Made by a program: the position numbers and the translations under genes. The notes beneath the pieces are model-generated. The model did not search any database, had not been told where the DNA came from, and saw nothing but the letters and a program-made list of their open reading frames with translations. Below are positions 22,618 through 48,096 of a stretch of DNA of 64,000 bases, one piece after another. The DNA is from an uncultured Acidobacteriota bacterium (GTDB taxonomy: Bacteria > Acidobacteriota > Thermoanaerobaculia > Multivoradales > UBA5704), in the NCBI GenBank assembly GCA_963770895.1, contig CAVYRF010000002.1, positions 3,520,001 through 3,584,000 of the forward strand. Reading direction: 5' to 3'. Numbering within the stretch: the first letter of the stretch is position 1; each line of letters opens with the position of its first letter.

Positions 22618-25600
22618 TTGCCGGCAGATGGATGTAAAAGGCATGACGAAATCGCTGCGACTCTGCGTCGGCAGGTGGCGCGCGTTTTGGATGTCGATGC
22701 CGCACGGCTGCCGGCGGACCGCCCGCTGGTGGCGTTGGGCCTGGATTCGCTGGCCGCGGCCGAGCTCGCCGCGGCGATCGAAGAGGTCTTCGGCACGCCG
22801 CTGGAGCTTGCGGCGCTGCTTGCCGGCCCCACCCTGGACGAGCTGACCGAAAGCATTTGCGCCGCCGCGGCGCCTGCGGCTGTTGCGCCTCCCGCGGCCG
22901 CCGCGGCGCCGGCCGCCGCCGCGCCGCCAGCAGCGCCGCCGCCAGCAACCGCGGCGCCGCGGGCAACTGCGCTGCCGGCCGCGAACGATGCGGCGCCGCC
23001 GGCGGGCGAGCCGATGTCCTGGGGGCAGCGGGCGCTGTGGCTGGTCGAGCGGATGGCGCCCGACAATCGCGCCTACATCCTGGCCGGCGCGGCGCGGGTG
23101 CGCGGCGGCTTCGACGTGCCCAACCTGCGCCGTGCGGTGGCGCTGCTGGTCGAGCGCCACGCGGCGCTGCGCGCCAACTTCGTCGAGGGCGGCGACGGCG
23201 TGGTGGTGCAGGTGACGCGCGACGCGCCGGCCTACGGGTTCGTGGAGCTGGACGGCGCGGCCCTGCGCCAGGCGAGCGACCCGGAGGTGGCCGTGGCACT
23301 GGCGCGCGAGGCCTACGCGCCGTTCGACCTGGCGGCGGAGCCGCTGCTGCGCCTGGTCGTCTGCCGGCGCGGCGGCACGGATCATTGGCTGGCGCTGGCG
23401 GTGCACCACACGGTGGCCGACTTCTGGTCGATGGGGGTCCTGGTCGCTGACCTGGGCGCGCTGCTGCTCGGCAGGAGCCTGCCGCCGCCGGCCGCCACCT
23501 ACCGCGACTTCGTGCGCGCCCAGGGCGAGCTGCTGGCGTCGCCCGCGGGCGAGCGGCTGGCGGCGTACTGGCGGGAGGCGTTGCCGGCGGGGTTGCCGGT
23601 GCTCGACCTGCCCACCGACCGGCCGCGGCCGGCGCTGCAAACCTTCCGCGGCGAGACGCGCTGGTGCGAGCTGCCGGCGGCGGTCGTGGCGCGCCTGCGG
23701 GCGCTCGGCAGGCAGCACGGCGCGACCTCGTTCATGACCCTGCTGGCGGCGTTCCTGGTGCTGCTGGAGCGGCTCTCCGGCCAGCCGCGGATCCTGGTGG
23801 GCACGCCGACGTCGGGGCGCTCGTCGCCGGCGCTGGCCGGGGTGGTCGGCTACTTCGTCAACCCGGTGGTGTTGCGCGGCGACGTCGCGGGCGATCCTGA
23901 CTTCGCGACGCTGCTGTCGCGCGTGCGGCAGGAAGCGCTGGCCTCCCTGGCGCACCAGGGGATGCCGTTTCCGCTGGTCGCCGAGCGCCTGGCGGCGGAG
24001 CGCGACCCCAACCGGCCGCCGGTGTTTCAGGTCCTGTTCGGGCTCTACCGCGAGCGCCGCCGCGCCGACCAGGGGCTGGCGGGGTTCGCCCTGGGAGCGG
24101 GGGGCGTCGGGCTCCAGCTCGGCGGTGGCGGCGGCGGCGCCGGCGATGCTGGCGCTGCCGGCGATGCTGGCGATGTGGGCGCCGCCGGCGGCCTTGTCCT
24201 CGAATCGGTGGCCCTGGTGCGGCCGGGGGCGCAGTTCGATCTCAGCCTGTCGCTGGGCGAGATCGGCGGCGCGCTGGGCGCCACGCTGGAGCTCAACGCC
24301 GACCTGTTCGACGCCGCGACCGGGCTGCGCCTGCTCGGCCAGTTCACCGTGCTGGCGGCGGCGATCGCGGAGCTTGGCGCCGGCACCGGTGCCGGCGGGG
24401 TGTCGCAGCTGCCCTGGCTGACAGCGGCCGAAACGCAGCAGCTCCTGGAATGGAACGACACCGCCGCGGCGCTGCCGCGCCAGGTCTGCCTGCACCAGCT
24501 GATCGAAGCGCAGGTGGCGCGGACGCCCGGCGCGATCGCCTGCGAGGCGCCGCTTGGCGGCGGCGGCTGGGAGAGCCTCACCTATGGCGAGCTGGACGCG
24601 CGCGCGGCGCGCCTGGCCGGCCGGCTGCGCCGCCAGGGGGTGGGGCCCGAAACGGTGGTCGCGATCGCTGCCGAGCGGTCGCTGAGCCTGATCGTCGGGC
24701 TGCTCGCCATCCTGAAGGCGGGCGGCGCCTACCTGCCGCTCGATCCCGCCTACCCGCCCGACCGCCTGCGGTACATGCTGCAAGACTCGGGCGCGCCGGT
24801 GCTGCTGCGGCAGCGGCGGGCGGCGCCGGAGGATGGCGCCGGCGGCGCGCCGGCGGGCGGCCCGGCGGATTTGCCGGACCTGGCGGAGCTGGCGGCGGCG
24901 AGCGGTGTGGCGGACCTGGACCTGGACGAACCGGCAGCGGACGAGCCGTGGCAGCGGCCGGCAGTCGGCGCGCAAAACCTGGCGTACGTGATCTACACGT
25001 CGGGTTCGACCGGGCGCCCCAAGGGGACGATGAACACCCACCGCGGCATCGTCAACCGCCTGCTATGGCTGCAGGAGAAGGACGGGCTGGACGCGACCGA
25101 CCGCCTGCTGCAGAAGACGCCGGCAAGCTTCGACGTGTCGGTGCCCGAGCTGTTCTGGCCGCTCCTGGCGGGCGCGCGGCTGGTGATGGCGGCTCCCGGC
25201 GGTCACCGCGACACCGCCTACCTGCTGGCGACGCTGGCCGAGCGGCAGATCACCGTGGTGCACTTCGTGCCGGCGATGATGCGGGTGTTTTTCGAGCACC
25301 TGGCGGCGGCGGCCGGTGCCGCGGCGGGGGCGCCGGCGCTGCCGCGGCTGCGGCGCGTCCTGGCGAGCGGCGAGGCGCTGCCCTGGGACCTGCAGCAGCA
25401 GTGCGCGGCGCTCCTGGGCGTGCCGCTGCACAACCTGTACGGCCCCACCGAAGCGGCGGTCGAGGTGACGCATTGGGCTTGCGATCCGGACAGCCGGCGC
25501 CAGCTGGTGCCGATCGGCCGGCCGGTGGCCAACACCGCGATCGTGCTGCTCGATCACCGCGGCGCGCGTGTGCCGCAGGGCGTCCCCGGCGAGCTGCACA

Positions 25601-48096: not shown

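Follow-up and report, generated by a model that had tools for sequence, protein, structure and literature searches.

Modules that lack an adenylation (A) domain form a described, though rarely studied, class within nonribosomal peptide synthetases (NRPSs; PMC8949500, PMC7539972, PMC10192304). In SidC of Aspergillus nidulans, the domain A3 loads the carriers (T domains) T3, T4 and T5 of a C-A-T-C-T-C-T segment (C, condensation domain), giving three identical residues (PMC10192304), and the mannopeptimycin line, with the arrangement [C-A-T-E-C-A-T-C-T-E], has a single A domain shared by two T domains (E, epimerization domain; PMC8949500). Loading in trans of modules that have no A domain or a dead one is documented in the same sources (PMC8949500, PMC7539972). 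Here we analyze a very large NRPS gene of an uncultured Acidobacteriota bacterium of the class Thermoanaerobaculia, whose genome comprises 8.16 Mb in three contigs. The gene lies on the plus strand of a stretch of 64,000 nucleotides (G000:C2:3520001-3584000), the whole of which we call the window and to which positions refer unless a contig is named. With a probability of roughly one-half, we consider its product a functional stand-alone synthetase of the lipopeptide type, belonging to the nonlinear kind in which carriers share A domains.

The protein was parsed by Pfam scans of ten module-sized pieces combined with motif positions. The resulting layout is T0-C1-A1-T1-C2-T2-C3-T3-C4-A4-T4-C5-A5-T5-C6-A6-T6-C7-A7-T7-C8-a-T8-TE, with eight C domains, nine carriers, five A domains consisting of core and C-terminal subdomain, one A-domain remnant (a) and a terminal thioesterase (TE). 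As in type I modular NRPSs, matches to Condensation, AMP-binding, AMP-binding_C, PP-binding and Thioesterase lay in every expected piece. The HHxxxD motif is kept in all eight C domains and the serine in all nine carriers (motif residues are T0 GLDSL Ser71, C1 HH291, C2 HH1482, C3 HH2125, C8 HH7609 and TE GWSLG 8332). C and T domains outnumber A domains and complete C-T modules stand within one protein, the pattern of nonlinear (type C) NRPSs, and the modules without a working A domain are placed directly downstream of A-containing ones, in C1-A1-T1-C2-T2-C3-T3 and in C7-A7-T7-C8-a-T8.

The closest solved relatives of the C domains are of the LCL type (Txo1/2, TycC6, fuscachelin PCP-C and PvdL C), and the C domains appear to be LCL-like and of bacterial type. 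The epimerase model TIGR01720 matched none of the eight at E<=1e-5, the E-domain motif HHxxxDxxSW was not found in the protein, and Pfam scans of the NRPS gave no methyltransferase (MT) or heterocyclization (Cy) family. A first-pass annotation, made by a model from the sequence letters, had proposed this same domain string with eight C domains, nine carriers and five working A domains, and had recognized no E, Cy or MT domain; the Pfam and motif parse bears out both statements. The TIGR01720 and motif results also ruled out that any of the C domains is in truth an E or dual E/C domain. The inserts of A6 were likewise ruled out as a site of an MT domain, being low-complexity Gly/Ala/Asp sequence with no Pfam match.

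To assign residues to the A domains, we aligned all 253 A domains of the genome and read nine pocket positions, anchored by the GrsA numbering. The pockets are DVPHLSLVE in A1 (24505-26073), DVVTVGRVS in module 4 (C4-A4-T4, 30406-33723), DAWFLGHVV in module 5 (C5-A5-T5, 33790-37203), DVWHMSLVD in module 6 (C6-A6-T6, 37267-41013) and DATKMGHVG in module 7 (C7-A7-T7, 41101-44823). By the usual specificity codes, A1 is presumably Ser-like (with the replacement W239P), A5 Leu-like, A6 Ser-like and A7 Asp-like, and A4 has no assignment. The order of residues offered earlier (Ser-like, unassigned, Leu, Ser, Asp-like) is thus supported by the pockets as far as these codes hold. The pocket of A4 (31813-33423) matches no amino acid, and its type, DVxNVGRVS-like, occurs at least 10 times in the genome. 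A further pocket type, DAHITTHV-, was seen five to six times in the genome; it too has no amino-acid match and shows an odd FDASCHEM/TTTGEQMQ core.

Modules 2 and 3 consist of C2 (HHVVGDG; 26506-27933) with T2 (28081-28308) and of C3 (HHIAADG; 28456-29868) with T3 (30049-30288). The linker between C2 and T2 (27934-28080, ~50 aa) retains the first residues of a C-A linker (..EERAQ), after which comes an Ala/Gly-rich stretch with no A domain. Both C-T gaps measure ~50-60 aa and therefore leave no room for a hidden A domain; one in another reading frame was ruled out because the linkers are too short. C2 and C3 are 74% identical and T2 is a duplicate of T1 (26146-26388) at 76% identity, with synonymous divergence (dS) of 0.3-0.75. 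At all three junctions without a working A domain, including that of module 8, the beginning of the C-A linker is kept (..EERAQ.., ..GERTQLL.. and ..EETQQITEWN..) and is followed by unique linker leading into the carrier. Because these first residues are retained, modules 2, 3 and 8 are, to judge from the junctions, products of in-frame A-domain deletion.

When all 278 carriers of the genome are placed in one tree, T1, T2 and T3 fall in an exclusive clade of five (support 0.907) together with the tandem T-T carriers behind a Ser-type A domain in a paralogous frame, C2_4105817; T3 pairs with the second of these two. By this tree, T1-T3 share descent from carriers served by one Ser-type A domain; loading of all three by A1 is therefore the simplest reading, and the tree together with the described precedents favors it. 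With the A-core model built here, no gene for a free-standing A or A-T protein of the Ser type was detected in the genome. Outside relatives of C2 and C3 reach no more than 53% identity, and the nearest of them stand before A domains of mixed pocket types, giving no pointer to the specificity of the lost A domains. Ratios of nonsynonymous to synonymous change (dN/dS) were 0.18 for T1 versus T2, 0.57 for C2 versus C3 and 0.39 for C5 versus C6, all below 1, though dS is small and biased at a third-position G+C content (GC3) of ~0.9. The earlier claim that three carriers must be loaded by an A domain other than their own, iteratively or in trans, is supported, as none of the three has one.

In module 8, part of the A domain is still present. 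The module aligns end to end with the last C-A-T-TE of another paralogue, C2_2132115, minus ~375 aa of the A core. C8 (HHIVSDG; 44887-46308) is ~77-80% identical to the last C domain of that paralogue and T8 (47014-47208) 85% identical to its terminal T. Between them lies the dead remnant (46309-46953), from which motifs A1-A5 have been deleted in frame and which retains only an AMP-binding_C match. The remaining motifs are destroyed, with A6 changed from ARGY to VGGD, A8 from HQVK to DEVR, and A10 from NGK to GGG, the last with loss of the A10 lysine. In a relative-rate test, we compared module 8 with the working paralogue against two outgroup modules and counted the changes unique to each. 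C8 had 26 unique changes and its counterpart 26 (371 columns), and T8 had five against six (84 columns). The remnant had 47 against 12 (176 columns; p=5e-6), an excess of ~35. Because the remnant decayed while C8 and T8 kept the rate of the working paralogue, we conclude from these rates that C8 and T8 are still constrained and that module 8 is in use. In C8 a Pro replaces the conserved Arg of the FVNT..R motif, and the working paralogue has the same Pro. T8 may be loaded by A7, one module upstream, or by an A domain of the DAHITTHV- type in trans.

At the other end of the protein, T0 (22639-22863) is a starter carrier resembling acyl carrier proteins (ACPs), with a Pfam PP-binding match at residues 43-106 (E=3e-16). 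It stands directly ahead of C1 (HHTVAD; 23011-24393), the first condensation domain, for which T0 would hold the donor; this placement is that of PvdL-type lipoinitiation. C1 has LCL-type and PvdL matches in the Protein Data Bank (PDB) and resembles C domains fed by a carrier, such as the PvdL C, which fits an acyl starter. A BLAST comparison of T0 with all frames returned 24 matches: T0 itself, 19 N-terminal domains of other NRPS frames, two domains directly behind N-terminal adenylating domains that are fatty-acyl-AMP ligase (FAAL)-like, and two internal ones. An acyl starter on T0 is the best reading because of the ACP-like motif and of the homologues behind FAAL-like domains, and on these same grounds the earlier proposal of T0 as an acyl carrier is supported.

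No fused or adjacent FAAL was found in the window. Three fused and two stand-alone FAAL-like proteins are encoded in the genome, matching fatty-acyl-AMP-ligase models with E down to 1e-140 and lying below the curated cut-offs. The stand-alone genes (C2:1673955-1675838, plus strand, and C2:910086-912026, minus strand) are 1.9 and 2.6 Mb from the NRPS, and T0 is probably acylated by such a remotely encoded enzyme. The DptE/DptF pair of daptomycin is an example of lipoinitiation by a FAAL and a carrier. The fused FAAL-like domains are N-terminal in frames C1_1013310, C1_444466 and C2_3398030, and ~20 synthetases of the genome start with a bare ACP-like T0. One of the stand-alone genes shares the pocket string DMGSFGCLF with the fused copies, suggesting shared lipoinitiation.

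In the proposed route, a FAAL encoded at a distance in the genome would probably first acylate T0 with a fatty acid, and C1 would join this acyl group to the Ser on T1. A1 would charge T1, T2 and T3, with C2 and C3 adding two more Ser, as in SidC. Modules 4-7 would follow collinear logic, with X, Leu, Ser and Asp as the residues added, and T8 would take its residue either from A7, upstream of it, or in trans from the A domain of a paralogue. The TE (47272-48048; GWSLG, Pfam Thioesterase E=4e-26) would then release an acyl-octapeptide of approximately the form acyl-Ser-Ser-Ser-X-Leu-Ser-Asp-Z. MbtH, a proofreading type II thioesterase (TEII) and a phosphopantetheinyl transferase (PPTase) would be supplied by one remote operon.

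To place the gene in its genome, we counted domains with hidden Markov models (HMMs) built from the A-core, T and C domains of this protein. The inventory, an extreme NRPS load, comprises 108 NRPS frames of up to 12,745 aa, with 253 full A, 278 C and 278 T domains. The modules are arranged as C-A-T in 222 cases, C-T in seven, C-a-T in six and T-T in seven. Thirteen modules, about 1 elongation module in 18, have no working A domain, and with seven C-T and six C-a-T beside the 222 C-A-T, A domains have been lost repeatedly here, for instance in the layouts CATCTCT of C1_1518395, CATCTCATCAT of C2_3935832 and CATTCaT... of C2_4105817. Beyond this genome, C-T-C-T-C-T frames with no A domain at all were found in Streptomyces (L005:1480-6789 and L009:1060-8115; three Condensation, three PP-binding and zero AMP-binding matches in Pfam), and NRPS proteins with several A-less modules are widespread in genome data. 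Similar A-less frames were seen in L014, L016, L008, L004 and L001, and layouts of A-T-C-T-C-A-T in Actinokineospora and of C-A-T-C-T-C in Tumebacillus. The rating of the noncollinear logic as highly unusual is therefore not supported as it was put, because modules of this kind are a described class and recur both in this genome and in other phyla. Some modules of the genome look split over overlapping frames (A-T | C-A | T-C-A-T...), as at G000:C1:940728-956181. Such splits may be true gene borders or assembly indels, and bear on the trust to be placed in single-frame architectures elsewhere in the genome.

The whole genome gave one MbtH match and one PPTase match, both ~1.04 Mb from the NRPS. 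They belong to a row of genes on one strand, encoding a pyridoxal-phosphate-dependent decarboxylase, MbtH, a TEII and an Sfp-like PPTase (L101:7743-11386, equal to G000:C2:2495742-2499385), and this one remote operon presumably serves all ~108 NRPS frames. The first-pass annotation had singled out that no MbtH, PPTase or TEII gene adjoins the NRPS; with single copies kept in one remote operon, this is nothing special.

That the carriers T2, T3 and T8 receive their residues in trans, from a separate A or A-T enzyme or from another synthetase's A domain, is unlikely in our view but has to be taken seriously. It has precedents in SyrB1/SyrE, WS9326A, ramoplanin/enduracidin and the loading of HMWP1 by HMWP2 (PMC8949500, PMC7539972), and the genome has 253 full A domains, including those of A-T frames such as C2_4012951 and C1_940728. 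The relatives of C8 that precede A domains of the DAHITTHV- type are 77, 63 and 62% identical to it and are its closest, six A domains of this type stand in other synthetases, and the steady rate of C8 suggests that its acceptor is unchanged. The 64-kb window, however, contains no adenylating open reading frame (ORF) besides the NRPS according to the A-core model, no pocket of the Ser or DAHITTHV- type occurs among the short A or A-T frames, and several A-T frames directly continue a preceding ...C frame and are parts of other assembly lines. That T1-T3 descend from carriers which a single Ser-type A domain served likewise speaks against trans loading of T2 and T3. If trans loading did occur, the residues on these carriers may differ from those of their neighbors. 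Several observations nevertheless weigh against the A-sharing lipopeptide synthetase that we prefer. The loading of T2, T3 and T8 is read from descent and analogy; C8 groups with C domains standing before A domains of the DAHITTHV- type, which fits an unchanged, trans-delivered acceptor better than Asp supplied by A7; the Pro at pocket position 239 of A1 is unusual; the dN/dS of C2/C3 exceeds that of C5/C6, making some relaxation possible; and the genome-wide counts depend on HMMs derived from the very protein under study. Nor was an orthologue found that would show the layout to be conserved. Genome contigs gave 597 related stretches with a best identity of 50%, the best match among 30 relatives was 53% over one C-T only, and the best-matching frames of two genomes of the same genus have the usual collinear C-A-T layout. 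When the junction at residues 1720-1960 was searched against 5.8 billion proteins, 410 of the 571 candidates scored passed E<=1e-20, none with more than 60% identity and more than 50% coverage. The best outside matches come from metagenome-assembled genomes of soil Thermoanaerobaculia.

The lack of an orthologue would also suit a decaying or crippled paralogue, in which the A-less modules stall the line or are skipped to give a shorter product. The gene is a singleton that has lost A domains kept by its paralogues, the dN/dS of C2/C3 is 0.57, and C8 carries the Pro in place of the FVNT..R Arg, although the working paralogue carries it too. We regard such decay as improbable, since the 25.5-kb frame is uninterrupted, its GC3 of 0.91 is typical of real genes in DNA of ~72% G+C, and every HHxxxD motif and carrier Ser is intact. 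Moreover, C8 and T8 have evolved at the rate of the working paralogue while the remnant between them gathered its excess of changes, the second paralogue, C2_4105817, also keeps a C-a-T after its Ser module, and modules without a working A domain occur 13 times in the genome. An assembly collapse or mis-join of repeated modules could mimic the loss of A domains, and we consider this very improbable. NRPS modules are repetitive, other frames of the genome look split and overlapping, and local errors are possible. The public reads were available as short metagenome contigs, with two runs containing 5 and 23% of the sampled words; the contigs aligned to 27500-47400 included many cross-matches from other NRPS genes, and none of the pieces listed bridges the junctions of module 2 or 3. 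One contig of run X2 (404 nt; 46121-46503, with six differences) does bridge the module 8 junction (46297-46392), though the public runs may include the source sample and so need not be independent of the assembly. The repeats themselves are far from identical, the 74 and 76% identities marking the A-less modules as old duplicates and not collapsed repeats, and their junctions hold unique linker. The divergence of the module 8 remnant is specific and takes evolutionary time, and the same layouts occur in other genomes. On this evidence, the missing A domains are not an assembly artifact.

The NRPS lies in a single open frame at 22534-48096 (stop codon at 48094-48096), as judged from the frame and its motifs. 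Its first GTG, at 22534, would give 8,520 codons. TTG at 22618 is the likelier start because AGGAGA stands 8 nt ahead of it and because the start of the divergent gene for an MscS-type channel (21491-22477, minus strand), which lies outside the system, is 141 bp away (22477); the product would then have 8,492 aa. A convergent ORF without Pfam match follows (48170-49027, minus strand), and these two neighbors are as first described. Further neighbors in the window encode an FG-GAP protein, an M20 peptidase and amidohydrolases, two genes of the last kind lying after the NRPS (49213-50727 and 52112-53818, both minus strand). The earlier remark that no exporter gene adjoins the NRPS holds for the directly neighboring genes and is weakened by a gene for a MacB/FtsX-type permease, an exporter candidate just 9.7 kb downstream (57789-60320, plus strand). 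About 19 kb upstream of the NRPS, an HlyD-family gene was found with a TetR regulator (1954-3687 and 3330-4103, both minus strand). Within the protein itself, long low-complexity inserts rich in Pro/Glu/Thr or Gly/Asp interrupt otherwise conserved C domains and A6 at alignment positions of surface loops. They lie at approximately 26750-26900 in C2, 28700-28830 in C3, 38400-38560 in C6 and 41640-41800 in C7.

If A1 does charge three carriers, the protein would be a compact bacterial model for inter-modular loading, a process shown biochemically mainly in fungal siderophore synthetases and one that defeats product prediction based on collinearity. The series T-T, C-a-T and C-T among paralogues of one genome provides natural intermediates for the loss of an A domain without killing the module and may be useful for NRPS engineering. 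In genome mining of this lineage, a lack of adjacent MbtH, PPTase, TEII or FAAL genes gives no hint of whether a synthetase works, because the helper functions are centralized. What is new here is modest in extent: a traceable route from tandem carriers to carriers separated by C domains, evidence for continued selection on an A-less module, and a lineage that habitually sheds A domains and centralizes helpers. More tentatively, and with some doubt, the gene could be seen as a bacterial counterpart of ferrichrome-type programming, in which a Ser-type A domain with T-T gained C domains between its carriers to give T-C-T-C-T, so that one A domain would serve three carriers (n, n+1, n+2) and a Ser3 stretch would result. 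The lineage, apparently soil Thermoanaerobaculia, would be one that sheds A domains in ~1 of 18 modules and shares one MbtH-TEII-PPTase operon and remote FAALs.

Among the characterized systems, SidC comes closest in its C-A-T-C-T-C-T segment, where one A domain is followed by two A-less C-T modules (PMC10192304). SidC is a fungal enzyme for a hydroxamate siderophore, with the A-less modules at the C-terminal end and no TE (PMC10192304). The NRPS studied here, in contrast, is bacterial and combines an ACP-like carrier at its N-terminus with an A domain of the Ser type, four more collinear modules, a second kind of A-less module (with the dead A remnant) and a TE. No shared ancestry with SidC is implied. 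The C domains are closest to bacterial LCL domains. Searches of the literature for the string C-A-T-C-T-C-T and its variants returned, among the matches listed, NRPS papers that were all fungal, and none on such a synthetase appeared, by titles and the beginnings of abstracts, in the literature on NRPSs and biosynthetic gene clusters of Thermoanaerobaculia. The purely fungal listing for the string suggests, short of proof, that no bacterial case of two successive A-less modules behind one A domain has yet been characterized.

Bacterial sharing of A domains is otherwise described for mannopeptimycin, viomycin/capreomycin (VioI/CmnI) and yersiniabactin (HMWP2), in which a neighboring A domain serves an A-less module and its residue is used twice or three times (PMC8949500, PMC7539972). 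In those accounts one A-less module follows the serving A domain, whereas here two follow A1 and a third stands at the end, with no cluster partners. The last C-T-TE of SyrE resembles the terminal C-(a)-T-TE and the inactive A domain of albicidin resembles the dead remnant (PMC8949500, PMC7539972). SyrE with SyrB1, albicidin, ramoplanin/enduracidin and WS9326A (Cal19 with Cal22/Cal23), however, are described there with a stand-alone A-T partner nearby (PMC8949500, PMC7539972), and the 64-kb window holds no A or A-T gene of the sort that the trans-complemented subtype has in its own cluster. For initiation, the comparison is with the PvdL type, FAAL-T-C-A-T (PDB 9UP2/9LCO), in which a carrier likewise precedes the first C domain and whose C domain, with LCL domains, is matched by C1. 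There the FAAL is fused or adjacent, whereas here the window has none and the stand-alone FAAL-like genes are remote.

Close relatives within the same genome are the paralogues, namely the line formed by C2_2119981 with C2_2132115, which starts T0-C-A(Ser)-T-T, and C2_4105817, whose pockets are in the order Ser, GRVS-type, Thr, Ser, Asp-like. They share the initiation T0-C-A(Ser) and the order of pocket types (Ser ... GRVS-type ... Ser-Asp-like), and identity to their domains is 65% for C1 (to the first C of C2_2119981), 63% for C7, 77% for C8 and 85% for T8. They differ in that one keeps its last A domain intact and the other has C-a-T as its second module, and both carry tandem T-T after A(Ser) where the present gene has T-C-T-C-T.

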